A model generated the notes under the pieces. That model ran no database searches and had not been told where the DNA came from. It saw only the letters and a program-made list of their open reading frames with translations. Positions 19,141 through 54,991 of a stretch of 59,868 nt of DNA are shown here, piece after piece. Origin of the DNA: Armatimonadota bacterium. Its GTDB lineage: Bacteria; Armatimonadota; SYMT01. The position numbers were made by a program, and so were the translations under genes. Each line of letters starts with the position of its first letter. The first letter of the stretch is position 1. The stretch covers positions 1-59,868 of the forward strand of contig JBKBRF010000042.1 in NCBI GenBank assembly GCA_046292385.1. The letters are read 5' to 3'.

Positions 19141-21756
19141 ATGTACTCAGGAGCGCGCCGTGCCTGGACTATCTTGCTGCCGGGCGCGGCACAGTGGGCG
19201 CAGAGAGCACCCCGCAGCTTCGGCCGCGGAATGATGGTGCTCCTGGTCGGAGTGGTAATGACGGGTGCCGCCGCGACCGGCGCCAACCTGCTCCCCAACA
19301 GTGAGGAGCTGGAGACCTGGGAGGCGCGCGACGGGGCCGCCGTGGCCCCGAACGTAACCGCGGCGCCGGACGGCAACGTGACCGCGGACCGTATTCAAGA
19401 CGGCCCCTCCGGATACCCGTACGTCGGCCTGAGCGTAAGCGCCCAGGCGGCGGGGGGCCACGTCTTCTCGTGCTATCTGAAGGCGGGCGAGCAGAACCAG
19501 GTTACGCTGCGGCTGCACAACCTGGACACGAAGCTCGACCTGGCCCGGACTACTTTCAACCTTTCCAGTGGCTGGCAGCGCTTTGCAGTCTCGGGAAGCG
19601 GCGTTTCCGTGGGAGATCGGCTCCGCGTCTTTCTCTATCCCGGAAAACTCGGATCGGGCTCCGGCGGCGTCTTCGCCTGGGGCGCGCAGCTCGAGGCGGG
19701 CACTTCGCCCGGCGCCTACCAGAAGACCCCGGCCGGCGGCGAGACCCCCGGCGATACCACCCCGCCCGCCGCGCCGAGTGGCCTGACCGCCACCTGGACC
19801 GGTACCGTAGTCCAGCTCACGTGGAACGCGAATACCGAAACCGACCTCGCCGGCTACCACGTAGAGCGGGGCGTCAACTCCACCACTGCCTTCTCGCCGG
19901 TCGCCACGCCTGTCCAGCCCGCATACCAGGATGGCAGCGTGCTCCCCGCGAGCACGTATTCCTACCGGGTGCAGGCGGTCGACGCCGCCGGGAATGTGAG
20001 CGGGTCGTCTTCCCTGGTGAGCGTGACCATTCCCGGTTCCACCCTCCTCGACACCACCCCGCCCGCGGTGCCGAGCGGTCTGACGGCGAGCTGGACCGGC
20101 TCCGCGGTGGCGCTCAAGTGGACCGCCAACTCCGAGAGTGATCTCGCCGGTTACCGCCTGGAGCGCGGCACTAGCGCTACTTCGCTCTCACCGCTCGCGA
20201 GCCCGAGCACGCCCGCCTACCAGGACGGCAGCGTGTCGGCGGGCGCGACCTACTACTACCGGGTGAAGGCGGTCGATAAGAGCGGCAACGTGAGCGGCGC
20301 TTCCGCCGCGGTGAGCGTCAGCGTGCCCGCCTCCCCGCCCCCGCCGACCAGCGGCAGCCACTTCTACGTGGCGCCGAACGGCAGCTCCAGCGGGGACGGC
20401 AGCCTGGCGCGGCCGTGGGACCTCAAGACCGCCTTCGCGCCCGCCTCCGCCATCAAGCCCGGCAGCACCGTCTGGCTCCGCGGCGGCCGCTACGGCACCG
20501 GCGGCTCCACCGTCTTCGAATGCCGCCTGGCCGGCACCGCTTCCGCCCCGATCATCGTGCGGCAGTATCCGCGCGAGCGCGCCACCGTGGACGGCGGCAT
20601 TTACGCCAAGCGTGGTTACGTCTGGTTCTGGGGCTTCGAGATCACCAACACCAGCCTGGAGCGCAATACGACGGAGAGCTACCGGCCGATCGGGCTGCGG
20701 ATGGATGCGGACGGGCAGAAGGCGATCAACCTGGTGATCAACAACACCGGGCGCACGGCGCTGAGCTTTCACAAGGACGTGGAGGTCTACGGCTGCCTGA
20801 TGTGGGGCAACGGCCACTACGATCCGAGCAAAGAGGGCATGATCCGGGGTGGGGCGGTCTACGGCAACGTGCCGAGCTCCGATCCGAACGTCACCCGGTA
20901 CATCCGGGACATCATCGCCTTCCGAAACTTCCGCTCCGGCATCAAGATCTACAGCGAGACGGCGGACCGGTATGTCAACGGCTTCCACCTCGAAGGGAAC
21001 CTCTGCTTCGACGCGCACATCGACAACCTTCACGTGACGAGCCGCGCCAACCCGGTCCAGCGGCTGCGGGTCCTGCGGAACTACACCTACGATGAGAGGA
21101 ACCAGGAAGGCTCCGGCAACCGGTTCGGCTACGAGACCGGCTACAACGAAGACGCGATCATCAGCGGCAACCGCTTCGTGACCGGAACGCTCAACGTCGG
21201 CGCGCTGCGGATCAAGAACTGGCGCTCGCTGCAGTTCACCGACAACCACGTGATCAGCCCCAACGAGGTGGCGGGGTGGGAGCAGGACTTCAGCCCGCTC
21301 TCGCTGCTCTGGGACCGCAACCGCTACTTCGGCGGCGACAGCACGCCTTTCTTGATGAATGGCAGCTCGCGGGACTTCCCCGGCTGGCAGTCGCTGGCCC
21401 GGGTCGATGCGAACAGCCGGCACGACCGCTCGCATCCGACCGGGACGGAGGTCTTCGTGCGGCCGAACCTGTATGAAGCAGGGCGAGGGCACGTAGCGGT
21501 CTACAACTGGAGCCGGCAGGCGACGGTGGAGGTCGACGTGTCCGGCCTGGGACTGAAGCCGGGGCAGAGCTTCGAGGTACTGGACGCGCAGAACTACTTC
21601 GGCGCGCCGGTGGCCACGGGGGTGTTCGACGGCAGCAAGATCACGCTGCCGCTGGAGCTGACGGAGACGACGCCGATCTGGGGGACGATCACTCACATCG
21701 GTCTTCGCCATACCAGCTCGGAGTTCAACGCCTTCGTAGTGCGTCCGCTCCCGTAG
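19141..21756 (+). CDS. Secreted protein: CBM/head-spike-like domain + 2x FN3 + right-handed beta-helix (pectin-lyase-like), paralogue 1
   Basis: Hydrophobic signal; two DTTPPAxPSGL...YxYRVxAVDxxGN FN3 repeats; FYVAPNG...GDGSLARPW...PGSTVWLRGGRY beta-helix cap; Asn-rich repeats. Confidence 0.85.
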   Translation: MYSGARRAWTILLPGAAQWAQRAPRSFGRGMMVLLVGVVMTGAAATGANLLPNSEELETWEARDGAAVAPNVTAAPDGNVTADRIQDGPSGYPYVGLSVSAQAAGGHVFSCYLKAGEQNQVTLRLHNLDTKLDLARTTFNLSSGWQRFAVSGSGVSVGDRLRVFLYPGKLGSGSGGVFAWGAQLEAGTSPGAYQKTPAGGETPGDTTPPAAPSGLTATWTGTVVQLTWNANTETDLAGYHVERGVNSTTAFSPVATPVQPAYQDGSVLPASTYSYRVQAVDAAGNVSGSSSLVSVTIPGSTLLDTTPPAVPSGLTASWTGSAVALKWTANSESDLAGYRLERGTSATSLSPLASPSTPAYQDGSVSAGATYYYRVKAVDKSGNVSGASAAVSVSVPASPPPPTSGSHFYVAPNGSSSGDGSLARPWDLKTAFAPASAIKPGSTVWLRGGRYGTGGSTVFECRLAGTASAPIIVRQYPRERATVDGGIYAKRGYVWFWGFEITNTSLERNTTESYRPIGLRMDADGQKAINLVINNTGRTALSFHKDVEVYGCLMWGNGHYDPSKEGMIRGGAVYGNVPSSDPNVTRYIRDIIAFRNFRSGIKIYSETADRYVNGFHLEGNLCFDAHIDNLHVTSRANPVQRLRVLRNYTYDERNQEGSGNRFGYETGYNEDAIISGNRFVTGTLNVGALRIKNWRSLQFTDNHVISPNEVAGWEQDFSPLSLLWDRNRYFGGDSTPFLMNGSSRDFPGWQSLARVDANSRHDRSHPTGTEVFVRPNLYEAGRGHVAVYNWSRQATVEVDVSGLGLKPGQSFEVLDAQNYFGAPVATGVFDGSKITLPLELTETTPIWGTITHIGLRHTSSEFNAFVVRPLP

Positions 21757-21788
21757 CCGGAGCTACAACCGCATAGAGACGAGCAGTG

Positions 21789-21822
21789 AGGCTGGCGGCA
21801 TTCTGATGTCGCCAGCCTTTCG
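21789..21822 (+). terminator. Terminator-like hairpin
   Basis: aggctggcggcat-tctg-atgtcgccagcct-ttc. Confidence 0.65.
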
Positions 21823-22347
21823 CGCGAGTCCGGCCTGCCGTGGTGACAACCCGGCAGAATCCGACCGGACGGTCCACGCCCGGCCCATCTCCTATCGCTC
21901 GTTTCGCGTTCTCCCGAACGGAAGCCGGCCCTCGGGGCTTTCAACCTTTCGGTGGACTCTCCGGCTGCCGCCCACCGCGGCCCCAGCAGGTTGCCCCGAC
22001 CGCTGCCCGGAGCCAGGTCCAGGCCATCTCGTCGCCTCGCCGCCGCTTCAGGCGGGTCGGGGACCGGGTGCGGATCCGGTCGTTCCCCTGGCTACCTGGC
22101 TCTCATCTGCGGGAAGCCGCGCATTCGGCAGAGTGGCGCCACCCGTCCCCGCGCCCCCCGCTCGCGGAGACTGTCCCACGGGTTACGATCCCCAACAAAA
22201 GGCTGACCCCCTGTTGTCGTCCGTACGAATGATCTGCAGAGCAGCTGCACCCGCCACCATCAAGCCAACCGCCGGGCGCGGCTCTAAGTCGGGCTGCGCG
22301 CCTCCGCGGAAGTCAATGAGCCAAATAAGCCAAAGGAAAGATGACCA

Positions 22348-24984
22348 ATGAAGATGGGAACACACCCGGTGTGGCCCACGCTCTCTCGCGGAGCGGACGA
22401 CCGAACGTCCCGGCCCGCCGGTGGCCTGGGCCGCCGCACCCCTCGCGGGGGCGCGTATGCCCTGATGCTGGTGGTAGTCGGCGGACTCATGACCGGCGCT
22501 GCCGCGACCGGCGCCAACCTGATCCCGAACAGTGACCAGTTGGAGACCTGGGAGGCGCGCGACGGCGCGGCGGTGACCCCCAATACTACGGCGGCCCCAG
22601 ACGGCAGCACGGTCGCGGATCGGGTGCAGGACGGCTCCTCCGGATACCCCTATATCGGCCTGAACGTGAATGCGCAAGCGGCGGGGAGCCACGTTTTCTC
22701 GTGTTATTTCAAGGCCAGTGAGCAGAAGCAGGTGGTGCTGCGGCTGCACAACCTGAACACGAAGCAGGACCTGGCCCGGACTACCTTCACGCTTTCGAGC
22801 GGGTGGCAGCGCTTCGCCATCACGGGCAGCGCCGTCTCCGCGGGAGACCGGCTGCGCGCCTACATCTATCCCGGCAGCCTGGGCGGGGGCTCCGGGGGCG
22901 TCTTCGCCTGGGGCGCGCAGCTCGAACAGGGCACCACTCCGGGGGCGTACCAGAAGACCCCCGCCGGCGGCGGGACCCCCGGCGATACTACCCCGCCCGC
23001 GGCCCCTACCGGCCTGACGGCGAGCTGGACCGGCTCCGCGGTGGCGCTCAAGTGGACCGCCAACTCCGAGGCGGATCTCGCCGGCTACCGCGTGGAGCGC
23101 GGGACCAGCTCCACTTCCCTGTCGCAGATCGCCAGCCCCAGCGCGGCGGCCTACCAGGACAGCAGCGTCTCGGCCGGCGCCACCTACTACTACCGGATAA
23201 AGGCGGTCGACGCTGCGGGTAACGTGAGCGGGGCCTCCGCCACGGTGAGCGTGACCGTTCCGGGCTCCACGCCGAGCGACACCACTCCGCCCGCGGCCCC
23301 CACCGGCCTGACGGCGAGCTGGACCGGCTCCGCGGTGGCGCTCAAGTGGACCGCCAACACGGAGAGTGACCTCGCCGGCTACCGCCTGGAGCGTGGGACC
23401 AGCGCTACTTCGCTCTCACCGCTCGCGAGCCCAAGCACGCCCGCCTACCAGGACGGCAGCGTCTCGGCGGGCGCGACCTACTACTACCGGGTGAAGGCGG
23501 TCGATAAGAGCGGCAACGTGAGCGGCGCTTCCGCCGCGGTGAGCGTGAGCGTGCCCGCCTCCCCGCCGCCGCCGACCAGCGGCAGCCACTTCTACGTGGC
23601 ACCGAACGGCAGCTCCAGCGGCGACGGCAGCCTGGCGCGGCCGTGGGATATCAAGACCGCCTTCGCGCCCGCCTCCGCCATCAAGCCCGGCAGCACCGTC
23701 TGGCTCCGCGGCGGTCGCTACGGCACCGGCGGCTCTACGGTGATCGACTGCCGCCTGGCCGGCACCGCCTCCGCCCCGATCATCGTGCGCCAGTATCCGC
23801 GCGAGCGGGCGACGCTCGACGGCGGGCTCTTTGCCCGCGGGGCGTACGTCTGGTTCTGGGGCTTTGAGATCACCAACACCAGCCTGGAGCGCAACACCAC
23901 GGAGAGCTACCGTCCGATCGGCCTGAAGATGGAAGCGGACGGGCAGAAGGCGATCAACCTGGTGATCAACAACACCGGGCGCACGGCGCTGAGCTTCCAC
24001 AAGGACGTGGAGGTCTACGGCTGCCTGATGTGGGGCAACGGCCACTACGATCCGAGTAAGGGCGGGATGATCCGGGGCGGAGCGGTTTACGCCAACGTAC
24101 CCAACTCCAATCCGAGCGTGACGCGGTACATCCGGGACATCATCGCCTTCCGGAACTTCCGCTCCGGGGTGAAGGTGTACAGCGAGTGGACCGATCGGTT
24201 CGTCAACGGCTTCCACGTGGAAGGGAACATCTGCTTCGACGCGCACATCGACAACATCCACGCCTCCAGCCGGGCCACTCCGATCCGGAACCTGAAGGTG
24301 CTGCGGAACTACACCTACGACGCGCGAGACCAGGAAGGCTCGTGCAACCGGTTCGGCTACGAGACCGGCTACAACGAGGACGCGATCATCAGCGGCAACC
24401 GCTTCGTGACCGGGACCCTCGGCTTCGGGGCGCTGCGGGTGAAGAACTGGAAGTCGCTGCAGTTCACCGATAACCAGGTGATCAGCTCGAACCGGCTCGC
24501 CGGCTGGGAACAGGACTTTACGCCGCTCTCCGCCGTGTGGGACCGCAACAGCTACTTCGGCGGCAGCAGCAGTCCGTTCCTGGCGAACGGCTCGTACCGG
24601 AGCTTCTCCGGGTGGCAGTCGCTGATGCGGGTGGACGGCAGCAGCCGTCATCAGAGCTCCTACCCGACCGGGATGGAAGTGTTCGTGCGGCCGAACCTGT
24701 ACGAGCCGGGGCGAGGGCACGTGGCGGTCTACAACTGGAGCCGGCAGTCGACCGTAGAGGTCGACGTGTCCGGCCTGGGGCTGAAGCCGGGGCAGAGCTT
24801 CGAGGTGCTGGACGCGCAGAACTACTACGGCGCGCCGGTGGCCACGGGGGTGTTCGACGGCAGCAAGATCACGCTGCCGCTGGAGCTGACGGAGACGACG
24901 CCGATCTGGGGGACGATCAATCACATCGATCTCCGCCACACCAGCTCGGAGTTCAACGCCTTCGTCGTCCGCCCCATCCAGTAA
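22348..24984 (+). CDS. Secreted CBM-like + 2x FN3 + beta-helix protein, paralogue 2
   Basis: Same architecture; highly similar to 19141-21756. Confidence 0.85.
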   Translation: MKMGTHPVWPTLSRGADDRTSRPAGGLGRRTPRGGAYALMLVVVGGLMTGAAATGANLIPNSDQLETWEARDGAAVTPNTTAAPDGSTVADRVQDGSSGYPYIGLNVNAQAAGSHVFSCYFKASEQKQVVLRLHNLNTKQDLARTTFTLSSGWQRFAITGSAVSAGDRLRAYIYPGSLGGGSGGVFAWGAQLEQGTTPGAYQKTPAGGGTPGDTTPPAAPTGLTASWTGSAVALKWTANSEADLAGYRVERGTSSTSLSQIASPSAAAYQDSSVSAGATYYYRIKAVDAAGNVSGASATVSVTVPGSTPSDTTPPAAPTGLTASWTGSAVALKWTANTESDLAGYRLERGTSATSLSPLASPSTPAYQDGSVSAGATYYYRVKAVDKSGNVSGASAAVSVSVPASPPPPTSGSHFYVAPNGSSSGDGSLARPWDIKTAFAPASAIKPGSTVWLRGGRYGTGGSTVIDCRLAGTASAPIIVRQYPRERATLDGGLFARGAYVWFWGFEITNTSLERNTTESYRPIGLKMEADGQKAINLVINNTGRTALSFHKDVEVYGCLMWGNGHYDPSKGGMIRGGAVYANVPNSNPSVTRYIRDIIAFRNFRSGVKVYSEWTDRFVNGFHVEGNICFDAHIDNIHASSRATPIRNLKVLRNYTYDARDQEGSCNRFGYETGYNEDAIISGNRFVTGTLGFGALRVKNWKSLQFTDNQVISSNRLAGWEQDFTPLSAVWDRNSYFGGSSSPFLANGSYRSFSGWQSLMRVDGSSRHQSSYPTGMEVFVRPNLYEPGRGHVAVYNWSRQSTVEVDVSGLGLKPGQSFEVLDAQNYYGAPVATGVFDGSKITLPLELTETTPIWGTINHIDLRHTSSEFNAFVVRPIQ

Positions 24985-25013
24985 GCCTCACGCGCTGCGC
25001 CTTTGCGGCGCAC

Positions 25014-25080
25014 GGCGGGCTGGCGGCAAGAGCTGTCGCCAGTCCGCTCCCCTCCAGCCCGAACAGGCGGGCTGGAGGGC
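25014..25080 (+). terminator. Two consecutive hairpins after paralogue 2
   Basis: gcgggctggcggca-agagc-tgtcgccagtccgc and ccctccagccc...gggctggaggg. Confidence 0.55.
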
Positions 25081-25177
25081 CTGCCCAGATGACGCCGAGG
25101 TAGCGTCCCTATTGCCGAACCGGAGCCCGCTCGCCGCCGCTGCTGAGCAAGAAAAAGAGTTTCTTGTCGATAGCAAG

Positions 25178-25206
25178 GGAACATTCGTCAGATCCGGTCG
25201 GTCCAT
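25178..25206 (+). promoter_or_regulatory. Second ECF-type promoter
   Basis: GGAACAT-N16-GTCCAT, preceded by the same TAGCAAG as the 18852 site. Confidence 0.5.
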
Positions 25207-25683
25207 GACCCAGGTAACACCCTCTAGTTGGCTTGCTACGGCCCGGCCCGGCATCTGCACTCAGCTCTGCCGGGCCATTGAGGATCGGGGCGAGCCCACT
25301 GCCGAGGGGATCACCGATTGGCAGCGACGCACCCACGGGTGACCTGGCTGCCCCGGGCTCTCCAGGAGCCCGGCAGACGCCGCCTCCGCCGGCCTCCCGG
25401 CTGCGCGGAAGTGGCTAAAGAGCGCCGGCGTAGCTCCGCACTCCGAACTGCGGCATCAGCTCGATCTCAGCGAGCCGGAACATTCCGGCACCGTTGAGCC
25501 TGGCACGCATAACCCAGGAGCGAGCTCTACTCCGGTCTTGCACATCCAGAGGATGACCCCACGGGGCTTCCGCACCAAATCCGCGGATCGTCGGCACAAA
25601 CCCGATCAACGCCATTCGCTCGGCGAGGCTCAGATCGGCCGGACGCACCCGTGGAAGTCAACGAGCCAAGGGAAAGGCAAACA

Positions 25684-28323
25684 ATGGAAAAGGGAACGCG
25701 CTCAGCGTGGCCCACGCTCTGTCGTAGAGCGAGTGACAGCACACCCAGGCCCTCCTCCGCGAGAGCCAGTTACCCCCGTCGTTCCGGCGGGTATGCCCTG
25801 ATGCTGGTGGTGGTCGGCGCGCTCATGACGGGCGCCGCCGCGACCGGCGCCAATCTGATCCCGAACAGCGAGGCGCTGGAGACCTGGGAAGCCCGTGACG
25901 GCGCGACGGTGGCGCCGAACGTGACCGCCGCGCCGAACGGCACCCCCAGCGCTGAGAAGGTCAACGACAACCCCGCTTCGGGCTACCCCTACATCGCCGT
26001 CAACACCCGGGCGGAGTCGGACGGCAGTTACGTCTTCTCGTGCTACGTGAAGGCGGGCGAGCAGCGCCAGGTGACGCTGCGCCTGCACAACCTGGAGACG
26101 AAGCAGGACCTGGCGCGGACGACGTTCGACCTCTCGGACTCCTGGCAGCGGCTGTCGATCAGCGGCGGCTCCGCGGGGACCGGAGATCGACTGCGGGCCT
26201 ACATCTACCCCGGAAAGGTGGGGAGAGGCTCCGGGGGCGTCTTCGCCTGGGGCGCCCAGCTCGAGGGCGGCACTTCGCCCGGCGCCTATCAGAAGACCCC
26301 CGCCGGCGGCGAGACCCCCGGCGACACCACCCCGCCCGCCGCGCCGAGCGGCCTGACGGCGAGCTGGACCGGCTCCGCGGTGGCGCTCAAGTGGACCGCC
26401 AACTCCGAGGCGGATCTCGCCGGCTACCGCGTGGAGCGCGGGACCAGCTCCACTTCGCTCTCGCAGATCGCCAGCCCCAGCGCGGCGGCCTACCAGGACA
26501 GCAGCGTCTCGGCCGGCGCCACCTACTACTACCGGATAAAGGCGGTCGACGCTGCGGGTAACGTGAGCGGGGCCTCCGCCACGGTGAGCGTGACCGTTCC
26601 GGGCTCCACGCCGAGCGACACCACTCCGCCCGCGGCCCCCACCGGCCTGACGGCGAGCTGGACCGGCTCCGCGGTGGCGCTCAAGTGGACCGCCAACACG
26701 GAGAGTGACCTCGCCGGCTACCGCCTGGAGCGTGGGACCAGCGCTACTTCGCTCTCACCGCTCGCGAGCCCAAGCACGCCCGCCTACCAGGACGGCAGCG
26801 TCTCGGCGGGCGCGACCTACTACTACCGGGTGAAGGCGGTCGATAAGAGCGGCAACGTGAGCGGCGCTTCCGCCGCGGTGAGCGTGAGCGTGCCCGCCTC
26901 CCCGCCGCCGCCGACCAGCGGCAGCCACTTCTACGTGGCACCGAACGGCAGCTCCAGCGGCGACGGCAGCCTGGCGCGGCCGTGGGATATCAAGACCGCC
27001 TTCGCGCCCGCCTCCGCCATCAAGCCCGGCAGCACCGTCTGGCTCCGCGGCGGTCGCTACGGCACCGGCGGCTCTACGGTGATCGACTGCCGCCTGGCCG
27101 GCACCGCCTCCGCCCCGATCATCGTGCGCCAGTATCCGCGCGAGCGGGCGACGCTCGACGGCGGGCTCTTTGCCCGCGGGGCGTACGTCTGGTTCTGGGG
27201 CTTTGAGATCACCAACACCAGCCTGGAGCGCAACACGACGGAGAGCTACCGGCCGATCGGCCTGAAGATGGAAGCGGACGGGCAGAAGGCGATCAACCTG
27301 GTGATCAACAACACCGGGCGCACGGCGCTTAGCTTCCACAAGGACGTGGAGGTCTACGGTTGTCTCATGTGGGGCAACGGCCACTACGATCCGAGCAAGG
27401 GCGGGATGATCCGGGGCGGGGCGGTTTACGCCAACGTGCCCAACTCCGACCCGAGCGTGACGCGGTACATCCGGGATATCATCGCCTTCCGGAACTTCCG
27501 CTCCGGAGTGAAGGTGTACAGTGAGTGGAGCGACCGGTTCGTCAACGGCTTCCACATCGAGGGGAACATCTGCTTCGACGCGCACATCGACAACATCCAC
27601 GCGACGAGCCGCCAGAACCCGATGAAGAACCTGAAGGTGCTGCGGAACTACACCTACGATCAGCGAGACCGCGAGGGCTCCGGCAACCGGTTCGGCTACG
27701 AGACCGGCTACAACGAAGACGCGATCATCAGCGGGAACTACTTCGTGACCGGCACCCTCGGCTTCGGGGCGCTGCGGCTCAAGAACTGGCGGTCGCTGCA
27801 GTTCACCGACAACCAGGTGATCAGCTCGCGGAACCTGATGTACTGGGAGCAGGACTTCAGCCCGCTCTCGCTGCTCTGGGACCGCAACCGCTACTTCGGC
27901 GGCGGTAGTGCGCCTTTCTCGATGAATGGCAGCTCGCGGGACTTCCCCGGCTGGCAGTCGCTGGCCCGGGTCGATGCGAACAGCCGGCACGACCGCTCGC
28001 ATCCGACCGGGACGGAGGTCTTCGTGCGGCCGAACCTGTATGAAGCAGGGCGAGGGCACGTAGCGGTCTACAACTGGAGCCGGCAGTCGACCGTAGAGGT
28101 CGACGTGTCCGGCCTGGGACTGAAGCCGGGGCAGAGCTTCGAGGTGCTGGACGCGCAGAACTACTACGGCGCGCCGGTGGCCACGGGGGTGTTCGACGGC
28201 AGCAAGATCACGCTGCCGCTGGAGCTGACGGAGACGACGCCGATCTGGGGGACGATCAATCACATCGATCTCCGCCACACCAGCTCGGAGTTCAACGCCT
28301 TCGTCGTCCGCCCCATCCAGTAG
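25684..28323 (+). CDS. Secreted CBM-like + 2x FN3 + beta-helix protein, paralogue 3
   Basis: Same architecture; ATG 25684 chosen because it aligns with the paralogue 2 start. Confidence 0.85.
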   Translation: MEKGTRSAWPTLCRRASDSTPRPSSARASYPRRSGGYALMLVVVGALMTGAAATGANLIPNSEALETWEARDGATVAPNVTAAPNGTPSAEKVNDNPASGYPYIAVNTRAESDGSYVFSCYVKAGEQRQVTLRLHNLETKQDLARTTFDLSDSWQRLSISGGSAGTGDRLRAYIYPGKVGRGSGGVFAWGAQLEGGTSPGAYQKTPAGGETPGDTTPPAAPSGLTASWTGSAVALKWTANSEADLAGYRVERGTSSTSLSQIASPSAAAYQDSSVSAGATYYYRIKAVDAAGNVSGASATVSVTVPGSTPSDTTPPAAPTGLTASWTGSAVALKWTANTESDLAGYRLERGTSATSLSPLASPSTPAYQDGSVSAGATYYYRVKAVDKSGNVSGASAAVSVSVPASPPPPTSGSHFYVAPNGSSSGDGSLARPWDIKTAFAPASAIKPGSTVWLRGGRYGTGGSTVIDCRLAGTASAPIIVRQYPRERATLDGGLFARGAYVWFWGFEITNTSLERNTTESYRPIGLKMEADGQKAINLVINNTGRTALSFHKDVEVYGCLMWGNGHYDPSKGGMIRGGAVYANVPNSDPSVTRYIRDIIAFRNFRSGVKVYSEWSDRFVNGFHIEGNICFDAHIDNIHATSRQNPMKNLKVLRNYTYDQRDREGSGNRFGYETGYNEDAIISGNYFVTGTLGFGALRLKNWRSLQFTDNQVISSRNLMYWEQDFSPLSLLWDRNRYFGGGSAPFSMNGSSRDFPGWQSLARVDANSRHDRSHPTGTEVFVRPNLYEAGRGHVAVYNWSRQSTVEVDVSGLGLKPGQSFEVLDAQNYYGAPVATGVFDGSKITLPLELTETTPIWGTINHIDLRHTSSEFNAFVVRPIQ

Positions 28324-28353
28324 GGCTGAACCAACTCCTCCTGGAGGGCAATC

Positions 28354-28391
28354 GCGGGTCCGGCGGCATCCTTGCCGCCGGACCCGTCCTT
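28354..28391 (+). terminator. Intergenic hairpin
   Basis: cgggtccggcggca-tcct-tgccgccggacccg (14-bp perfect stem). Confidence 0.6.
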
Positions 28392-28430
28392 ATTACTAGC
28401 CCGGATTACCCCATCCCAGGAGGCCTTGCC

Positions 28431-31270: not shown

Positions 31271-31278
31271 CGGAGCTC

Positions 31279-33464: not shown

Positions 33465-33501
33465 CGCCGTCTCTCCGGATGAATTGCCGCCCTCGGCGGG
33501 A

Positions 33502-36772: not shown

Positions 36773-36880
36773 CGCGATACACCTCAGGGCTAACCCGCAG
36801 CGCTCGTCGCTGCGGGGGGAAGCACTGGAGAGTCAAAGAAAGCTCGATGGGAAACTCGTTCGCGGGCGTCCTTCACGCGT

Positions 36881-38413: not shown

Positions 38414-38446
38414 GGTAGTGCTCGGGAGTAAGCAGGCGGAGAGCGG

Positions 38447-39679: not shown

Positions 39680-39743
39680 GGTATATCCCCATCCGATCGG
39701 TCGTGGAGACGGATCGGTATCGTGGTGAGTCGACGGGAGAATC

Positions 39744-41144
39744 TCAGAGAGCGGTGGGACCGGGATCATCCGGAGGCGGAGGCACGGCGCGGGCTTTCAG
39801 CCAGTGGATGCGCGGCGTCAGCGTGCTCTCCAATAGAGGGCCAACGCCGCTCGCCATGGCGTAGGCCATCACGAGCCAGTGGAGCTTGTTGTAGATCCAG
39901 ACGCCGCTCATGTTCGCGATGAAGACGGTAATGGTCATTGCGAGCGGGAGCATACCGTAACTCCCGCGGCGAGACCTCCAGGCAGCGGCCAGGCACAGCC
40001 CGGAGCCGAGCAAGAAAGGTACTGCGCCGAGCAGCCCGGTTGCCACGAGCACGAAGAGCACGGCATTGTGCGCGTTCTTCGTCTCCTCTTCGGGATGCTG
40101 CAGGCGCCGGCCGAGCTCGTAGTTGCAGGTCACCGGCCCCCAGCCGATCAGCGGGCGCTCGGTGACCATCTGCCAGGCGGTCGGGTAGATCAGCTCCCGG
40201 CGCGCCATCTCGCCGGAGGCGAGAGTCTCTTCGAACCGCGCGCGGGTGACCTCGGAGCGGGAGGCGAGCCAGACGAAGAAGCTCATCCCGACGAGGACGA
40301 CCGCCAGCATTCGGACACGGGTGCGGGCATCTCCAGCGCTCAGCGCGAGGACCAGGAGCCCCGCCGCCAGCGCGAGCAGCCCGCCCCGAGAGCCGGTGTT
40401 GACGAGGGAGACCCCCATCAGCACGAAGCCGATCAGGGCTGCGCAGCGGAGGAAGGAGGACGCCTGCCGGAGCGCGTAGCCGAAGCTGGTCAGGGTGAGG
40501 AGCCCGAGGGCGAGGATCCGCGCCATGGTGTTCGGATGGAGCCCCAGCGCGGTGAGGCGGCCCGACCCGCTGGTGAGCCCGCCGGTGACGATCTCCACTC
40601 CCTGAATCACCACCAGGAGAGTGCAGGCGGCGGCGAAGAGGAGCAGTGCGGTCCGGGCGATCCGCTCCCGGCGCATCAGGTTGAACGCCACCCAGCAGAG
40701 GAGCGTGAGCTGGACGTGGACCACCGAGAGGCGGATGATCTCGCCGCGGAGCTCCCGGGGCTGCAGGGCGCCTAGAACGAGGCTGACGTAGAGGTACGCC
40801 GCGAAGAACCAGAAGGCGGCCGGCGGCTTGCGGAAGCACTCCCGCGGCTGCAGCAGCGTCGCCAGGAACAGGAGGCCGATCCCCAGCATCGTGGGCTCCA
40901 GCCCGCCGGGAAGCAGCACCGCTTCGAACGGAAGCAAGAAGATGAAGAGGTAGAACGCCAGCGGGATCAGCGGGTTGAGCGGTGCCGCGCGGCACTCCGT
41001 TTGGGGAGGCGTGAGGTACGGCAGCGGCCTGGCTGCGGCACGCCCGGGTGAGGCAGGCCCCGGGCGCGGCGGCACTCGGAGCGGCCGGGCCGGTATGACG
41101 CTCGATCCGGTACTATGGTGATCCCGTGCAGTCGGTGGTACCAT
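39744..41144 (-). CDS. wzy: O-antigen ligase / Wzy polymerase family membrane protein
   Basis: HPN, TGSRGG, RPLIGWG and AHN motifs; about 10-12 TM; start uncertain. Confidence 0.75.
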   Translation of the reverse strand: MVPPTARDHHSTGSSVIPARPLRVPPRPGPASPGRAAARPLPYLTPPQTECRAAPLNPLIPLAFYLFIFLLPFEAVLLPGGLEPTMLGIGLLFLATLLQPRECFRKPPAAFWFFAAYLYVSLVLGALQPRELRGEIIRLSVVHVQLTLLCWVAFNLMRRERIARTALLLFAAACTLLVVIQGVEIVTGGLTSGSGRLTALGLHPNTMARILALGLLTLTSFGYALRQASSFLRCAALIGFVLMGVSLVNTGSRGGLLALAAGLLVLALSAGDARTRVRMLAVVLVGMSFFVWLASRSEVTRARFEETLASGEMARRELIYPTAWQMVTERPLIGWGPVTCNYELGRRLQHPEEETKNAHNAVLFVLVATGLLGAVPFLLGSGLCLAAAWRSRRGSYGMLPLAMTITVFIANMSGVWIYNKLHWLVMAYAMASGVGPLLESTLTPRIHWLKARAVPPPPDDPGPTAL

Positions 41145-41257
41145 CTGGGGCTCGCGCTCTCTGGCAGTGCGTTGGAGTTAGATGCTTCTGGTGAGCGGTG
41201 CGCTGGGGGGAGCCGGGCGGCGACTTGCAGGTGCCGCCGCCCGGCTCCCGGTGTCTC

Positions 41258-43240
41258 TCACTGCGGCTTCTTCTGGTAGAGCCCGGGGGTGGAGCCGCGC
41301 TCGAGCTGGGCGCCCCAGGCGAGAGCCGAGCCGCCCTCCCGCTTGTACTGGCCCGGGTACAGGTAGATCCGCAGCTTGTGCCCGGCCGTGACCTCGCCGA
41401 TGGCAGCCGCAATTCGCTGCCACGCAGCGGAGAGGGTGAAGGGTGTCTCGACGAGCCGCACCTTCGTGTTCAGGTTGTCGATGCGGACGGTGGCGAGGCT
41501 CAGGGTGCCGGCCTGCAGGTAGCAGGAGAAGACGTACGGCCCGGTTTCGGGGACCGTCACGTCGGTGTAGACCGCGGGATAGCCGCTGGCGGCCGGGGCG
41601 TCGTCGACTCGATCGGCGGTCTGCGCGCCGTTCGGGTCGACTGCGGCGTCGGCCGTGACCACGCATCCCTCACGGGTCGTCCACCGGTCGAACTGCTCAC
41701 TGAAAGCGAGCAGGTTCTCTCCGGGGACGACGTCCGGCGTCGTGGCGCTCGCGACGTTGGAGTAGTCGGAGTAGAGGTCTCCCGCGAAGGCGCGCACCCG
41801 GTAGTAGAAGGTGGTGCTCGCGGCGCCCGGATCGTCCACAAAGCTGGTGCTGTCCGGTCCCGCTACGCCGACGACGCTGAACTGCGTGCCGTCGGTCGAG
41901 CGCTCGATCTCCACGCCTTCCTCGTTGTTCGCGTGGTCGGTCCAGGCGAGATTGATGCGCGTGGTGACCGTCGCGGTCGCTGCCAGGTCCGACGGCGCGG
42001 CCGGCGGGACGTGAATCTTCGCCGAGGCGGTGTTAGACGGCGCGGAGAGCTGATCGCCCTTGAAGGCGCGCACCACGTAGGCGTAGGTCACCCCGGCCGT
42101 CACCGCCGTGTCCTGGTAGGCGGTGGTGTTCGCCGGGAGCGCCGGCAGCGCGGTGAAGCTGCCGCCGTCGGCGGAGCGCTGGACGATGAAGCCGTCCTCG
42201 TCGACCGAGTTGTCGGACCAGCCCAGGTCGATCCGCGACTCCGACGCCACCGTCGCGCTCAGGCTTCCAGGCGCCGGCAGAGCCGACTCCGCCCACAGCG
42301 TAAAGCTGTCGATCAGCTCGCCGGTGCGGGTGAAGAACTCGAAGGTGATACGATCCGCCGCCGCGGTCACCCGCTGGGCTCCATAGTCCGCGCCGTAGCG
42401 GACCAGGCTCCCTGCGGCGGGAGTCAGGCCGTCGAAGTTACCCCGGCTTCGCCCGCCCAGCCCGTTGATGACGTAGGTCAGCCCGTCGACCAGCAGGCGC
42501 TCGTAGATGTGGTGCTGTCCGGACAGCACTGCGTCGGCGCCCCACTCCTTGAACGGCCAGCGCAGCGTCGAGTACCCTCCCCGGGTTCCGTAGGGTGGGT
42601 GATGGATGACGACGAGCTTCCAGGGCGCGGTGGAGGCGGCCAGCCGTGCCTGGAGCCATTTGGCCTGTACGGAGGTGCTCTTGATGCCGTCCGGCTCGTG
42701 CTTCTCGCTGTTCAGCATGAAGAAGTGCACGGGACCCCAGGTGAAGTCGTAGTAGCGCTCGTTGTTCGGCAGCGTGAAGTAGTCGAGGTAGGCGGTATAC
42801 CCCGTGGAGGAGTGCCAGTCCTTGTCCGCCAGCGCGGGAAAGAACCGGTTCGTCTCCGCGCCCGCACCGTAGCTGCCCCGGTAGGGATGGATGTACTCCT
42901 GGTAGTACTGCCCGACGTTCTTGTCGATCGTCTGCGCGGCGCCATTCGAGTAGGTCTTGTCGCCGTAGTTGTTGTCGCCCAGCGTGGCGATGAGCTCCGG
43001 GCTCCAGCTCTTCACCAGGCTCGCCACATCCCGCTCGGCGGTACCGCTCCAACCGTAGTCCCCGATGATGGCGAAGAGGCACTCGCTCGCCTGCGCCGCC
43101 GCAGGCCGGGCGCTCTGAAGCTCTACCAGCGAGAGGCCGGCCGCGGTGATCAGGCTGGTCCGTATGAGGTCACGCCGGTTTAGCGAAAGGTGCTCCCGCG
43201 GGGGGGCAGCCGGCCGGGACTGGTGCTTGCGATTCATCAT
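41258..43240 (-). CDS. Tat-exported metallophosphoesterase (PAP-like, altered motifs) + 2x FN3 + CBM-like domain, paralogue A
   Basis: NRRDLI Tat motif; GDYG, GDNNY, HHPPY; FN3 repeats; C-terminal NLLAFSE...WGAQLERG. Confidence 0.85.
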   Translation of the reverse strand: MMNRKHQSRPAAPPREHLSLNRRDLIRTSLITAAGLSLVELQSARPAAAQASECLFAIIGDYGWSGTAERDVASLVKSWSPELIATLGDNNYGDKTYSNGAAQTIDKNVGQYYQEYIHPYRGSYGAGAETNRFFPALADKDWHSSTGYTAYLDYFTLPNNERYYDFTWGPVHFFMLNSEKHEPDGIKSTSVQAKWLQARLAASTAPWKLVVIHHPPYGTRGGYSTLRWPFKEWGADAVLSGQHHIYERLLVDGLTYVINGLGGRSRGNFDGLTPAAGSLVRYGADYGAQRVTAAADRITFEFFTRTGELIDSFTLWAESALPAPGSLSATVASESRIDLGWSDNSVDEDGFIVQRSADGGSFTALPALPANTTAYQDTAVTAGVTYAYVVRAFKGDQLSAPSNTASAKIHVPPAAPSDLAATATVTTRINLAWTDHANNEEGVEIERSTDGTQFSVVGVAGPDSTSFVDDPGAASTTFYYRVRAFAGDLYSDYSNVASATTPDVVPGENLLAFSEQFDRWTTREGCVVTADAAVDPNGAQTADRVDDAPAASGYPAVYTDVTVPETGPYVFSCYLQAGTLSLATVRIDNLNTKVRLVETPFTLSAAWQRIAAAIGEVTAGHKLRIYLYPGQYKREGGSALAWGAQLERGSTPGLYQKKPQ

Positions 43241-43270
43241 TCAGCGTCCTTCTCTGCAGAGAGAGCGGTC

Positions 43271-43313
43271 CGTGTCTCACCGCCGGCGAGCGTTCTGCCG
43301 GCGGTGAGACACG
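43271..43313. terminator. 17-bp perfect hairpin between phosphoesterase paralogues
   Basis: cgtgtctcaccgccggc-gagcgttct-gccggcggtgagacacg. Confidence 0.65.
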
Positions 43314-43321
43314 AACGGCGG

Positions 43322-45529
43322 TTAAGCGGGCTTCTTCCGGTACGGTCCCGGGACGGAGCCGCGCTCGAGCTGCGCGCCCCAGGCCAGGATCGAGCCGCCG
43401 TCCCGCTTGTACTGGCCGGGATAGAGGAAGATCCGCAGCTTGTGTCCCGCCGGCACGTCAGCCAGGACGGCAGAGAAGCGCTGCCACGAGCCGGAGAGGG
43501 TGAAGGGCGCCTCCACCAGTCGCACCTTCGTGTTCAGGTTGTCGATGCGGACGGTGGCCAGGCTCAGCGAGACGGCCTGCAGGTAGCAGGAGAAGACGTA
43601 CGGCCCGCTCTCGGGGACCATCACGTCGGTGTAGACCGCGGGAAAGCCGGTCGTGGAGAGAGAGTCGTCGAGCCGGTCCGCCGTCACCCCGCCGTTCGGA
43701 TCGGCGCCGGCGTTGGCGGTCACCGCGCAGGCGTTCTGGACCGCCCACCGGTCAAGCTGCTCGCTGTACGCCAGCAGGTTCTCGTTGGCCGGAGTCCCGG
43801 GCGTGGTAACCTGCGCCACGTTCGAGTAGTCGGAGTAGCGGTCTCCCACGAACGCGCGGACCCGGTAGAAGAAGGTGGCGCCTTCGACCTCCGGATCGTC
43901 CGTGAAGCCGGTGCTGTTCGGACCGGCGAGGCCGACCACGCTGAAGCGAGTCCCGTCCGCGGACCGCTCGATCTCGACTCCCTCTTCGCCGTCCGCGCGG
44001 TCGGTCCAGGAGAGCCGGATCGCCGTGGAAGTCTCCGGTGAGCCGCCGTTCGCGCTCTCGATCGAAAGGCCGAAAAGCACCGCGTCGCCGTAGATGCGGG
44101 CGATTTGCAGATCCAGCGCCCCGTCCTGTACGGAGACTCGGAAGGGCCCGTACTTCCGCCAGCTTCCGAGCGGGAGGGTGCCGATCCCGCTCGCCAGGGT
44201 CGCTCCCTCGCCGGTCGCGGTCATGCTCCGGTAATTGGGCCGCCAGTTCTCGATCATCCAGAGGCAGACGTCGTACTCGCCGTTCGCCAGCGCCTGGCGC
44301 ACCTGGAAGGCGCCCGGCTTCCAGATACAGCTCTCCAGCATCGTGCGAGTATCGGCGTCGGCCGTCGGTGAGAGCTCGAAGGTGTAGCTCCCGCTCCAGC
44401 TATCGGCCCCGGTGACGGAGAGCCCCTGGCCCAGCGCGTCGGCGTGGGAGAGCCACTGCCTTCCTTCGATGGTAACCGCCGGTCCGTTCAGGTTGATGCC
44501 GCGGAAGTAGCCGGAGGCCGGTGCCGCCGGCGCGGCCTCCAGGTTGGCGGGCGCCGGCAGCGCCGCCTCTTTCCAGAGGGTGAAGCTATCGATCAGCTCG
44601 CCGGCGCGGGTGAAGAACTCGAACGTGATCCGGTCGCTCGCCGCGGTGACGCGCTGCGCCCCGTAGTCCGCCCCGTACCGGACGAGACTCCCCTCCGCCG
44701 GATCGAGCCCTACGAAGTCGCCGCGGCTCCGGCCTCCGAGGCCGTTGATGACGTAGGTGAGCCCGTCGACCAGCAGGCGCTCGTAGACGTGGTGCTGTCC
44801 GGAGAGCACCACGTCGGCGCCCCACTCCTTGAACGGCCACTGCAGTCGCACAAAGCCGCCGCGGGTGGCGTAGGGCGGGTGATGGAGCACGACGATCTTC
44901 CAGGGGGCGGTGGAGGCGGCGAGCCGGGACTGCAGCCAGGCGGACTGCACGGACGGATGCCGGGATCCGTCGGGGTCATGGAGCTCGCTGTTCACCATGA
45001 AGAAGTGAACCGGACCCCAGGTGAAGTCGTAGTAGCGCTCGTTGTGGGGCAGGGTGAAGTAGTCGAGGTACGCCTGGTAGCCGATCGCGGCGTTCCAGTC
45101 CTTGTCCGCCAGGGCCGGGAAGAAGCGGTTCGTCTCCGCGCCCGTCCCGTAGCTGCCCAGGTACGGGTGGATGAACTCGTGGTAGTACTGCCCGATATTC
45201 TTGTCGATCGTCTCGACCGAGGCGGTCTCGTAGACGGTGTCCCCGTAGTTGTTGTCCCCCGTGGTGACGATGAACTCCGGGCTCCAGCTCTTCACCAGGT
45301 TCGCCACGTCGCGCTCGGCGGTACCGCTCCAGCCGTAGTCCCCGATGATGGCGAAGTGACACTCGCTCGCCTGCGCGTGTGCCGGGCGGGCGCTCTGCAG
45401 GTCTACCAGCGAAAGGCTGGCTACGGTGAACAGGCCGGTCCGAATCAACTCGCGCCGGCTCATACCAGGATGCGGACACGTTTCGTCCGCCTGGGGGGCA
45501 AGGTTCTGGAAATCGCGTTCGGATTGCAT
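43322..45529 (-). CDS. Tat-exported metallophosphoesterase + FN3 split by a malectin-like insert + CBM-like domain, paralogue B
   Basis: SRRELI Tat motif; same motifs as paralogue A; extra ~160-aa insert GINLNG...GALDL. Confidence 0.85.
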   Translation of the reverse strand: MQSERDFQNLAPQADETCPHPGMSRRELIRTGLFTVASLSLVDLQSARPAHAQASECHFAIIGDYGWSGTAERDVANLVKSWSPEFIVTTGDNNYGDTVYETASVETIDKNIGQYYHEFIHPYLGSYGTGAETNRFFPALADKDWNAAIGYQAYLDYFTLPHNERYYDFTWGPVHFFMVNSELHDPDGSRHPSVQSAWLQSRLAASTAPWKIVVLHHPPYATRGGFVRLQWPFKEWGADVVLSGQHHVYERLLVDGLTYVINGLGGRSRGDFVGLDPAEGSLVRYGADYGAQRVTAASDRITFEFFTRAGELIDSFTLWKEAALPAPANLEAAPAAPASGYFRGINLNGPAVTIEGRQWLSHADALGQGLSVTGADSWSGSYTFELSPTADADTRTMLESCIWKPGAFQVRQALANGEYDVCLWMIENWRPNYRSMTATGEGATLASGIGTLPLGSWRKYGPFRVSVQDGALDLQIARIYGDAVLFGLSIESANGGSPETSTAIRLSWTDRADGEEGVEIERSADGTRFSVVGLAGPNSTGFTDDPEVEGATFFYRVRAFVGDRYSDYSNVAQVTTPGTPANENLLAYSEQLDRWAVQNACAVTANAGADPNGGVTADRLDDSLSTTGFPAVYTDVMVPESGPYVFSCYLQAVSLSLATVRIDNLNTKVRLVEAPFTLSGSWQRFSAVLADVPAGHKLRIFLYPGQYKRDGGSILAWGAQLERGSVPGPYRKKPA

Positions 45530-45554
45530 GTCTTCTCCTCCTGGCTGATGAGCT

Positions 45555-47321
45555 TCAGCGGTTCACGAGCCGCCGGCGAGGGCGCAGCGGCATGCGCCGG
45601 CGCGGCGGGCTGGACAGGCTTCTGAGGTAAGGCCCGGCGGTGGAGCCGCGCTCGAGCTGCGCGCCCCAGGCGAGGACCGACCCTCCCTCCCGCCGGTACT
45701 GGCCGGGATAGAGGTAGATCCGCACCTTGTGTCCCGCCGTGATCTCTCCGAGCGGGACGGTGAATCGCTCCCAGGATCCGGTGGGGAGCGTGAGGGGAGC
45801 CTCGACCAGCCGCAGCTTCGTGATCAGGTTGTCGATCCGGACGGTCGCCTGTCGGAGCGATTCCGCCTGGAAGTAGCAGGAGAAGACATAGGGTCCGGTT
45901 GTCGGGACCGTGACGTCCGCGTAGATGGCGGGATAGCCGGCCGTGGAGGGGGAGTCGTCGATCCGGTCCGCGGTCATCGTCAGGTTCGGAGCGGCCGCGA
46001 CGTTCGGGACGACCGTGCAGCCCTCCCGCATCACCCACCGCTCGAACTGCTCGCTGTTGGCGAGCAGGTTGGTGCCGCCCGTGGAAGCCGGTGTCGTGGC
46101 GCTCGCCACGTTGGAGTACTGGGAGTAGCGAGTGCCGGCGGCGGCGCGGACCCGGTAGTAGAAGGTCGTGGCCGGGGTCCCGGTCTCGTCCGCGAAACTG
46201 GTGCTGTTCGCCCCCAGGACCGCGATCAAAGAGAAGCTTGCCCCATCCCGGGAGCGCTCCAGCTCGAACGTCTCTTCGCCGCTCGTCTGGTCGACCCAGG
46301 TGAGATTGATGAGGGTGCCGGCCGTCGGGCTCGCCTGCAGTTGGGTGGGCGCCGCCAGGGGGAGCTCGCCCCAGAGGGTGAAGCTGTCGACCAGTTGTCC
46401 GGCGCGGCTGAAGAACTCGAAGGTGATCCGATCGCTGGCCGCGGTGACGCGCTGCGCCCCGTAGTCCGCCCCGTACCGGACGAGACTCCCCGCTGCCGGC
46501 TGCAGGCCGTCGAAGTTGCCCCGGCTGCGGCCGCCGAGCCCGTTGATGACGTAGGTCAGTCCTCCGACCTCCAGCCGCTCGTAGACGTGGTGCTGGCCGG
46601 AGATGACGGCGTGGGCGCCCCACTCCTTGAACGGCCACTGCATCCGCGCCAGCCCTCCCCGCGTCGCGTACGGAGGGTTGTGGCAGACCACGATCTTCCA
46701 GGGAGCGGTGGAAGCGGCGAGCTGGCGCTGCAGCCAGGCGGACTGGACCGAGGGATGCTTCGCTCCATCCGGCTCGTGCTTCTCGCTGTTCAGGATGAAG
46801 AAGTGGACCGGACCCCAGACGAAGTCGTAGTAGCGCTCGTTGTGGGGCAGGGTGAAGTAATCCAGGTGGGCCTGGTAGCCGAGGGTGGGGTGCCACTCCT
46901 TATCGGCAACCGCGGGGAAGAACCGGTTCGTGTCGGCCCCCGCGCCGTAGCTTCCCCGGTACGGGTGAATGTACTCGTGGTAGTACTGGCCGACGTTCTT
47001 GTCGATCGTCTCGACCGAGCCATTCGCGTAGACAGCGTCCCCGTAGTTGTTGTCCCCCGCGGTGACGATGAGCTCCGGGCTCCAGCTCTTCACCAGGTTC
47101 GCCACGTCGCGCTCGGCGGTGCCGCTCCAGCCGTAATCACCGATGATGGCGAAGAGGCACTCGCCGGCCTGGGCCCAGCCGGGTCGAGCGTGCCGGAGAT
47201 CGGCGAGCGAGAGCGCCGCCGCGGTGAACAGGCCGGTGCGAATCACTTCACGGCGGCTGACTCCCGAGGACGGCAGCAACTGCTGGACCTGGTTGTGTAG
47301 AGCGGATCTCTTCATCTCCAT
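45555..47321 (-). CDS. Tat-exported metallophosphoesterase + FN3 + CBM-like domain, paralogue C
   Basis: SRREVI Tat motif; same motifs as paralogue A. Confidence 0.85.
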   Translation of the reverse strand: MEMKRSALHNQVQQLLPSSGVSRREVIRTGLFTAAALSLADLRHARPGWAQAGECLFAIIGDYGWSGTAERDVANLVKSWSPELIVTAGDNNYGDAVYANGSVETIDKNVGQYYHEYIHPYRGSYGAGADTNRFFPAVADKEWHPTLGYQAHLDYFTLPHNERYYDFVWGPVHFFILNSEKHEPDGAKHPSVQSAWLQRQLAASTAPWKIVVCHNPPYATRGGLARMQWPFKEWGAHAVISGQHHVYERLEVGGLTYVINGLGGRSRGNFDGLQPAAGSLVRYGADYGAQRVTAASDRITFEFFSRAGQLVDSFTLWGELPLAAPTQLQASPTAGTLINLTWVDQTSGEETFELERSRDGASFSLIAVLGANSTSFADETGTPATTFYYRVRAAAGTRYSQYSNVASATTPASTGGTNLLANSEQFERWVMREGCTVVPNVAAAPNLTMTADRIDDSPSTAGYPAIYADVTVPTTGPYVFSCYFQAESLRQATVRIDNLITKLRLVEAPLTLPTGSWERFTVPLGEITAGHKVRIYLYPGQYRREGGSVLAWGAQLERGSTAGPYLRSLSSPPRRRMPLRPRRRLVNR

Positions 47322-49638: not shown

Positions 49639-49644
49639 CGGTCG

Positions 49645-51207: not shown

Positions 51208-51254
51208 TGCGGCTCGTTCTCCTGAGGGTCACAGAGAGCGGTGAGAAGGGCACG

Positions 51255-52703: not shown

Positions 52704-52743
52704 GGAAGTCGCTCCTCAAGACATCTGCCGAAGCGTCTGCCGT

Positions 52744-54912: not shown

Positions 54913-54991
54913 AAATTGCACCAGCCTCCGATGAAACGGCACATCAGAGGCAGAAGATAATGAGCGGGTGATAGATGCCGCAGCGAGGCGG

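Follow-up and report, generated by a model that had tools for sequence, protein, structure and literature searches.

A phage head-spike-fibre family domain on two classes of exported protein at an exopolysaccharide locus of an Armatimonadota bacterium

A domain resembling a carbohydrate-binding module (CBM), linked through FN3 domains to an enzyme fold at an exopolysaccharide (EPS) locus, is a familiar design, and beta-helix lyases encoded at such loci are already known; the accessible parts of one report describe RbmB of Vibrio cholerae as a beta-helix lyase at an EPS locus that acts on the Vibrio polysaccharide (PMC11637428). On the viral side, the closest described protein is Rcc01080 of the gene transfer agent (GTA) RcGTA. 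In the available portion of that study, tagged Rcc01080 (residue 11 onward) bound 100% of capsulated cells compared with ~4% for a capsule-less mutant, and its gene adjoins the capsule genes rcc01081-01086 (PMC10218006). Here we describe a contig of an Armatimonadota bacterium (JBKBRF010000042.1, assembly GCA_046292385.1; 59,868 nucleotides, analysed whole, referred to as the window and used for all coordinates) in which a domain of the same family as Rcc01080, called the module below, occurs on six exported proteins of two fold classes at one EPS locus. Our leading interpretation, held tentatively and judged slightly short of an even chance, is that the module is a CBM-like tag that would hold polymer-processing proteins on the cell's own anionic EPS.

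One module in six exported proteins

The carriers are three beta-helix proteins (BH1-3), which have a paralogue, BH4, and three proteins with a metallophosphoesterase fold (PE1-3).

19141-21756, plus strand: BH1; signal peptide, module, two FN3 domains, Pel9A-like beta-helix (fold taken from paralogue BH4), C-terminal beta domain
19285-19728, plus strand: module copy 1, in BH1; NF048003 81.5 bits (cut-off 36); CBM-like beta-sandwich
22348-24984, plus strand: BH2; architecture as BH1
22516-22959, plus strand: module copy 2, in BH2; NF048003 84.7 bits
25651-28323, plus strand: BH3; architecture as BH1; the real start may lie further downstream
25852-26298, plus strand: module copy 3, in BH3; weak CBM_4_9 match (E 4e-4, 21.2 bits against a cut-off of 25.9)
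28354-28387: terminator-like hairpin after BH3
28431-30026, plus strand: BH4; beta-helix alone, converging on the end of the EPS operon; PF22842, Pel9A fold match
41258-43240, minus strand: PE1; twin-arginine-type signal, metallophosphoesterase fold (ADKD/GQHH), two FN3 domains, module
41267-41716, minus strand: module copy 4, in PE1; AlphaFold2 model, pLDDT 91.4
43322-45529, minus strand: PE2; as PE1, with an inserted M2 module
43331-43780, minus strand: module copy 5, in PE2; by NF048003 and sequence comparison
44045-44518, minus strand: M2 accessory module in PE2; about 155 amino acids, no Pfam match, 72% identity with copies from a different EPS locus, that of contig C9
45555-47321, minus strand: PE3; twin-arginine-type signal, ADKE/GQHH phosphoesterase fold, FN3, module
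45618-46070, minus strand: module copy 6, in PE3; by NF048003 and sequence comparison

The module is 148-151 amino acids long and lies directly after the signal peptide in BH1-3 and at the C terminus in PE1-3, with an FN3 domain adjoining it in all six proteins. Copies share 70-78% identity among the BH proteins, 65-73% among the PE proteins and 40-47% between the classes (BLASTP E 1e-32 to 1e-39 among seven proteins), with 40 invariant columns in the six-copy alignment. The initial annotation, made from the sequence alone, had proposed that beta-helix N termini and phosphoesterase C termini carry the same module, at opposite ends and always beside FN3; both statements hold, the second in six of six proteins. 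A profile built from the six copies and searched against 61,497 stop-to-stop open reading frames of the 7.0 Mb genome found these six only (next match, E 0.11), and ordinary CBM_4_9 matches occur three times elsewhere in the genome. A generic CBM scattered through the genome and unconnected to EPS loci, the outcome that had been set against the original proposal, is thereby ruled out for the module, all copies of which are at one Wzx/Wzy locus.

The architecture is real. Contigs of two soil studies, P2 and P3, span the FN3-module junction of PE2 (X2 record 15; X3 record 23, 44 differences), and because these contigs bridge it we reject an assembly artefact at the module junctions; those of PE1 and BH3 are spanned by contigs of X1, which may be the source sample. 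A prophage remnant is also ruled out, as no virion genes are annotated in the window, the frames are intact and the sequences are under purifying selection (module ratio of nonsynonymous to synonymous substitution, dN/dS, 0.21-0.42 within class). GC content at third codon positions is 0.83-0.93 in the module copies, which are thus GC-ameliorated. Judged by eye, the N termini are of the twin-arginine type in PE1-3 and of the Sec type in BH1-4, and the genome also encodes TatC, an Omp85 protein and six secretin matches. Export of the six proteins to the periplasm is likely and export beyond it possible.

Family, relatives and origin of the module

The module belongs to the phage head-spike-fibre family NF048003 (GTA_spike_fiber, NCBIfam), a link that the initial annotation had drawn correctly: the six copies score 62-85 bits against the curated cut-off of 36, and four of the four full-length module proteins scanned exceed it. 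All six match PHROG 5939, a 'tail protein' family, and the best sequence match among solved structures is RcGTA Rcc01080 (residues 87-256, E 1.1e-7), whose domain is itself unresolved by cryo-electron microscopy, according to the accessible part of that study (PMC7296036). The fold predicted for copy 4 is a CBM-type beta-sandwich. Its top structural match among 48,161 chains is residues 203-388 of Pa193 gp46 (Z 17.1, root-mean-square deviation (rmsd) 2.2, 145 aligned residues), also a weak sequence match (E 0.03), and the next are CBM4-2 (Z 13.8) and then CBM61, CBM16 and CBM22; Foldseek places CBMs top in the PDB and uncultured phage proteins top in BFVD. Of the two groups that the initial annotation had named for comparison, phage head-spike fibres and the CBM4/16/22 families, a phage protein comes first and CBM4 next. 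By profile, sequence and fold, the domain is homologous to those of Rcc01080, the RcapMu58 tail protein and the baseplate proteins Pa193 gp46 and E217 gp45; the portion of the E217 paper available to us states no function for the matching gp45 domain.

The window copies differ from these relatives in setting and sequence. Here they are carried by signal-peptide-bearing cellular proteins and joined by FN3 to a beta-helix or phosphoesterase domain; a virion context, with a capsid-anchoring N terminus or structural genes nearby, is absent, given the signal peptides, FN3 domains, enzyme-fold domains and neighbouring EPS genes. They are also shorter than viral copies (~150 compared with ~170 amino acids), at most 36% identical to them, and have another predicted ligand face. 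With CBM4/16/22/61 (CBM_4_9) domains on secreted carbohydrate-active enzymes they share the beta-sandwich (Z 12-13.8), FN3 linkers and, by position, the same role, but structural identity is 9-14% and the gathering score of Pfam CBM_4_9 (PF02018; 25.9) is not reached, one of the six copies being matched (21.2 bits at best).

A profile search places 14,819 clusters in the family with E values no higher than 1e-3. The best 150 include two from the window, three cellular FN3 fusions (P0003, P0004 and P0005) and mostly multi-repeat proteins thereafter, with a drop from 120 to 80 bits per domain before the multi-repeat proteins begin. Among 120 listed longer homologues, enzyme-type Pfam domains accompany the module in the window PE proteins, P0005, P0156 and one protein with PF09206. 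Of the 159 metagenome and viral loci, L054/L055 alone combine module, FN3 and beta-helix. The module was absent from 117 PE homologues and from 119 BH homologues, the latter from a search that took proteins of up to 828 amino acids and so excluded fusions of the size of BH1-3. Within the same family as the window genome (G000), the relative G005 has the module four times, spread over three genes whose beta-helix is of the unrelated pectate-lyase-3 type. These lie at C4:426254-439916 (L022:6254-19916), where three tandem module genes and one gene without the module parallel BH1-3 and BH4. Besides G000 and G005, which match by construction, a scan of 401 genomes found five with weak matches (at most 62 bits), and a survey of named genomes, a weak test of a narrow pattern, gave a single hit among 82 candidates: a Balneolaceae gene that is virion-like and has multiple repeats. 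NF048003 itself exceeds its cut-off in 15 of 41 genomes sampled from the phylum; among 14 control genomes it has matches in 6 and is above cut-off in 3. The enzyme-fused copies form one small clade, found in the window genome, one family relative and a few metagenome proteins, and nearly all other relatives look virion-like.

The nearest non-cellular proteins match PHROG 5939 in 30 of 32 cases, often far beyond the module, a count that is partly circular because the module lies inside that profile. In IMG/VR, 373 of 513 candidate stretches were confirmed, with at most 36% identity among the 79 loci listed, and 13 annotated phage records contain the module. Such virion kinship is what would be expected if the module were an anti-phage decoy, a captured receptor-binding domain that masks capsule sites of phages bearing the same domain while the attached domains edit those sites. 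We regard this as very improbable: among the loci listed there is no close viral relative, the predicted ligand face is strongly unlike the viral one, and the window has GC-ameliorated copies and no annotated prophage genes.

As to where the module came from, 15 cellular copies form one clade (support 99/92) within which the six window copies split cleanly into a BH and a PE triplet, a split that points to about one cross-class event and later duplication. The phylogeny that the initial annotation had looked to is thus clear in its triplets, but the six copies do not amount to six independent acquisitions. In a tree with 11 cellular CBM-like outgroups, the cellular clade falls among the viral rows, and the viral rows come together as a single clade in 0% of the 200 bootstrap trees; the nesting is also seen in a 100-row tree, built in a quick version only. 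A C-terminal 'QLExG..P..Y' tail was considered as a virus-only mark and rejected, since cellular CBM-like domains of the phylum carry a similar tail. The proposal of phage-derived co-option therefore stands in part. The domain is of a phage family and nested among viral sequences in the best trees, and a viral source is the better guess. The direction from virus to cell is not established, as forcing the viral rows to be monophyletic costs only 1.7 log units and is not rejected (approximately unbiased (AU) test, p = 0.452), and the family grades into cellular CBM_4_9, with a CBM_4_9 cluster (56% of members) as the top Atlas match.

Beta-helix and phosphoesterase partners

The model of BH4 (pLDDT 96.4) has pectate lyase Pel9A (1ru4) as its top match in both fold searches (Z 26.0, rmsd 3.7, 315 aligned residues), a score tied with those of alginate epimerase/lyase and BT_1002; RbmB follows with Z 23.2. 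The domain is assigned to PF22842 (precomputed). PL9 lyases use an acidic calcium site and a catalytic lysine. Across 73 homologues, however, the BH family has no conserved Asp or acidic cluster, and the candidate lysine, K196, is 56% conserved. The BH proteins thus resemble RbmB in being signal-peptide-bearing right-handed beta-helices at an EPS locus, with Pel9A as the closest fold, and differ in forming four tandem paralogues, bearing a phage-family tag and showing no conserved PL9 acidic calcium cluster in these homologues. Within-class dN/dS of the beta-helix domain is 0.23-0.32. The array is a mosaic (19141-30026), in which BH2 and BH3 are 100% identical over some 300-nucleotide blocks and BH1 and BH3 97% identical over others, suggesting gene conversion among BH1-4; local chimerism of the BH catalytic regions is possible within such 97-100% identical blocks.

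Purple-acid-phosphatase-like metallophosphoesterases (PF00149) are marked by the motifs DxG, GDxxY, GNH[DE], H and GHxH. PE1-3 belong to this fold family and keep DxG, GDxxY, the first His of the HH pair and the last His of GHxH; the ligands of the first metal (D, D, Y, H) are unchanged. They depart from it in three of three proteins, with GNHD changed to ADK[DE] and GHxH to GQHH, and a five-residue insertion follows GDNNY. The changes hit two second-metal ligands and the catalytic His, and conserved arginines (TRGG, GRSRG) lie near the site. Among 122 other domains, the Asn is kept in 114 and the His in 115, and the ADK/GQxH pair recurs in 2, P0386 and P0387, neither with the module. These two group with PE1-3 (SH-aLRT support 99, in a quick 60-row tree holding about a third of the remaining homologues); because they do so without the module, the rewiring of the site predates module fusion. 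About 41 domains with GNRD in place of GNHD form the sister group of the PE clade. Three canonical paralogues elsewhere in the genome, two of them on C1 and C18, lack the module and keep the standard motifs. Sequence searches found no solved structure matching the PE domain. The ADK[DE]/GQxH clade (41258-47321, minus strand, in the window; P0386; P0387) is under purifying selection, with a within-class dN/dS of 0.18-0.19 for the PE domains.

These sites bear directly on whether the module holds enzymes on the polymer, and on an alternative in which it helps to build a matrix scaffold, with PE pseudo-enzymes that bind phosphate, lectin-like beta-helices, and proteins whose two polymer-binding ends cross-link or anchor EPS. 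The altered motifs of all three PE proteins, the nearby arginines and the lack of a conserved PL9 cluster in the BH homologues compared fit such a scaffold. In CthPnkp, as far as the available text of the study goes, Asn263 is essential and H376Q is inactive, like the alanine mutant (PMC2190708); we infer by analogy that His376 and Asn263 correspond to the residues changed in PE1-3. There is also precedent, according to the accessible sections of one report, in the non-catalytic RbmA, RbmC and Bap1 encoded beside the Vibrio vps genes (PMC11637428). Nevertheless, a pure scaffold is decidedly unlikely in our judgement: the first-metal ligands are intact, and Asp and Gln could serve as ligands of a harder metal; the variant is a well-supported clade with twin-arginine-type signals and dN/dS of about 0.19; and the nearest structures to the BH domain are lyases, epimerases and hydrolases. 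The metallophosphoesterase superfamily also tolerates ligand swaps that can narrow specificity, in the parts of that paper available (PMC2190708). The PE proteins are thus pseudo-enzymes that have been conserved, or else enzymes whose second metal site has changed. The initial annotation had spoken of six enzymes; six exported proteins of two fold classes are there, but the label is not established, because the PE sites are altered and the BH homologues compared show no conserved PL9 catalytic set.

The locus polysaccharide and the possible role of the module

The locus has the components of a Wzx/Wzy-dependent EPS system, namely a priming transferase, Wzc, Wza, Wzx, a polymerase-like membrane protein and glycosyltransferases, with the polymerase candidate matching only the Wzy_C/O-antigen-ligase family. 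The minus-strand gene order is priming transferase, Wzc, Wza, kinase-like genes, Wzx-like gene, PE3-PE2-PE1, Wzy_C-family gene, then GT4 genes and other distal genes. PE1-3 thus lie inside the EPS operon, between wzx and the wzy-like gene, and BH1-4 form a tandem array that converges on its end.

2342-5074, minus strand: DUF5695 protein, 910 amino acids, unrelated to the module finding
17270-17941, minus strand: extracytoplasmic function (ECF)-type sigma factor, divergent from BH1; homologues flank EPS loci in C9 and in G005
29996-41144, minus strand: distal EPS genes; GT4, ATP-grasp, polysaccharide deacetylase, AMP-binding ligase, NTP_transf_5, thymidylate-kinase-like, Asn-synthase-like (weak), GT4, Wzy_C/O-antigen-ligase-like
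47387-55801, minus strand: proximal EPS genes; Wzx-like flippase (47387-49006), kinase-like genes, Wza (51255-52703), Wzc (52744-54942), priming sugar transferase (54992-55801)

ECF sigma factors related to one another stand beside EPS loci in the window, at G000 C9:131321-132025 and 136711-137424, and at about G005 C4:490600-491100, and may regulate those loci; no sigma-70-like promoters were found. Kinase-like genes and NTP_transf_5 nucleotidyltransferases lie at 34938-36772, 49006-51207 and 58031-59134, hinting at a phosphate-substituted polymer.

Several observations, the place of PE1-3 inside the operon among them, favour a link between the module and this polymer. A predicted concave ligand face (R78, K85, R116, Y/F118 and Y120) is common to all six copies, and position 118 is Glu in other lineages. 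Identity over this face is 37% between BH and PE copies (43% overall) but falls to 15% with the other cellular copies (36%) and to 10% with viral copies (28%). The Arg/Lys/Tyr face is predicted to suit an anionic polymer. The module sits at one of the five wzc-bearing loci of the genome and nowhere else in it. Among relatives, L054/L055 adjoin a PMT-type glycosyltransferase and a UDP-glucose dehydrogenase, and the G005 module cluster is 6 kb from a sugar transferase. In P0282, a BH homologue (41% identical), CBM_4_9 occupies the N-terminal slot that corresponds to the module of BH1-3. The initial annotation's idea that the module accompanies wzx/wzy loci therefore applies in this genome, but the association is loose in relatives, with 21-25 kb between the module cluster and a Wzx/Wzy-type locus in G005.

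On the interpretation that the module tags EPS-processing proteins, an ancestor of this bacterial family would have fixed a head-spike-fibre, CBM-like module as an accessory of exported FN3-linked proteins. In the window genome, about one cross-class shuffle would then have put it, at a single Wzx/Wzy locus, on both a variant phosphoesterase and a Pel9A-like beta-helix protein, with triplication of each gene to follow. Once the proteins are exported through Sec or Tat, the module might bind the locus polysaccharide through its Arg/Lys/Tyr face; the beta-helix domains, held on the chain, could cut or trim it in the manner of lyases encoded at EPS loci, and the rewired PE domains could act on, or merely bind, its suspected phosphate substituents.

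We acknowledge that several observations weigh against this interpretation, beyond the altered catalytic sites and the equivocal direction of transfer already described. The six copies trace back to about one shuffle and later tandem duplication, and local processes of this kind would equally confine the module to one locus. Strand alternation and general CBM topology, applied after the alignment had been viewed, gave the ligand-face positions, which do not come from coordinates. BH4 has neither module nor FN3, a fourth G005 paralogue is likewise without the module, and the G005 cluster lies outside its EPS locus. In Rcc01080, the capsule-binding part is not mapped in the accessible text of that work (PMC10218006). 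Module swapping is also a habit of the window genome: M2 is present in 15 copies in six proteins on five contigs, including non-EPS sites, with beta-helix, GDSL, apiosidase-like and PE domains as partners. Its other sites are G000 C9:110914-118551, C17:117114-120281, C19:24960-28700 and C43:33405-36575, with two proteins at the C9 EPS locus.

This habit favours a generic accessory domain, one of several interchangeable beta-sandwich add-ons on exported proteins (CBM_4_9, malectin, dockerin, SLH and M2 being others) that binds an environmental glycan or is a mere spacer, its cross-class sharing arising by recombination of FN3-containing neighbours. The many accessory domains exchanged in the BH family, the overlap of NF048003 with cellular CBM_4_9 and its occurrence in the phylum sample and controls, and the location of the G005 cluster are all in keeping with it. 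Nonetheless, neither the canonical PE paralogues on C1 and C18 nor any other FN3 protein of the genome carries the module, its predicted ligand face is kept across classes and changed between lineages, and three of three readable cellular contexts are near glycan-synthesis genes; we consider a generic add-on somewhat unlikely.

A bolder version of the EPS-tag interpretation holds that a phage receptor-binding domain was domesticated once in the family and now serves as a reprogrammable EPS address tag, its face retuned in each lineage, recruiting locus-specific processing proteins: here the Pel9A-like helix and a chemically new Asp/Lys/Gln phosphoesterase, in relatives a beta-helix of an unrelated class. 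We think it rather doubtful. Our literature search, in which subscription papers were largely uncovered, found no description of this domain on cellular enzymes or of the ADK/GQHH variant and no paper under the NF048003 family name; the surprise is otherwise limited because the general design is familiar. Such a domesticated tag, if it exists, would run against the usual course, in which CBMs are acquired by phages, and if the viral origin is correct a virion adhesion domain would have been turned into a tool of the host envelope. The ADK/GQHH phosphoesterases represent a conserved pseudo-enzyme or a new metal site, and on the bolder version that site would carry out a metallophosphoesterase chemistry not yet described, with phosphate groups of the capsule as its target. 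NF048003 is very large and has almost no functional data beyond one GTA fibre; single-copy cellular modules that lie beside the genes for their probable ligand make glycan binding by the family directly testable.

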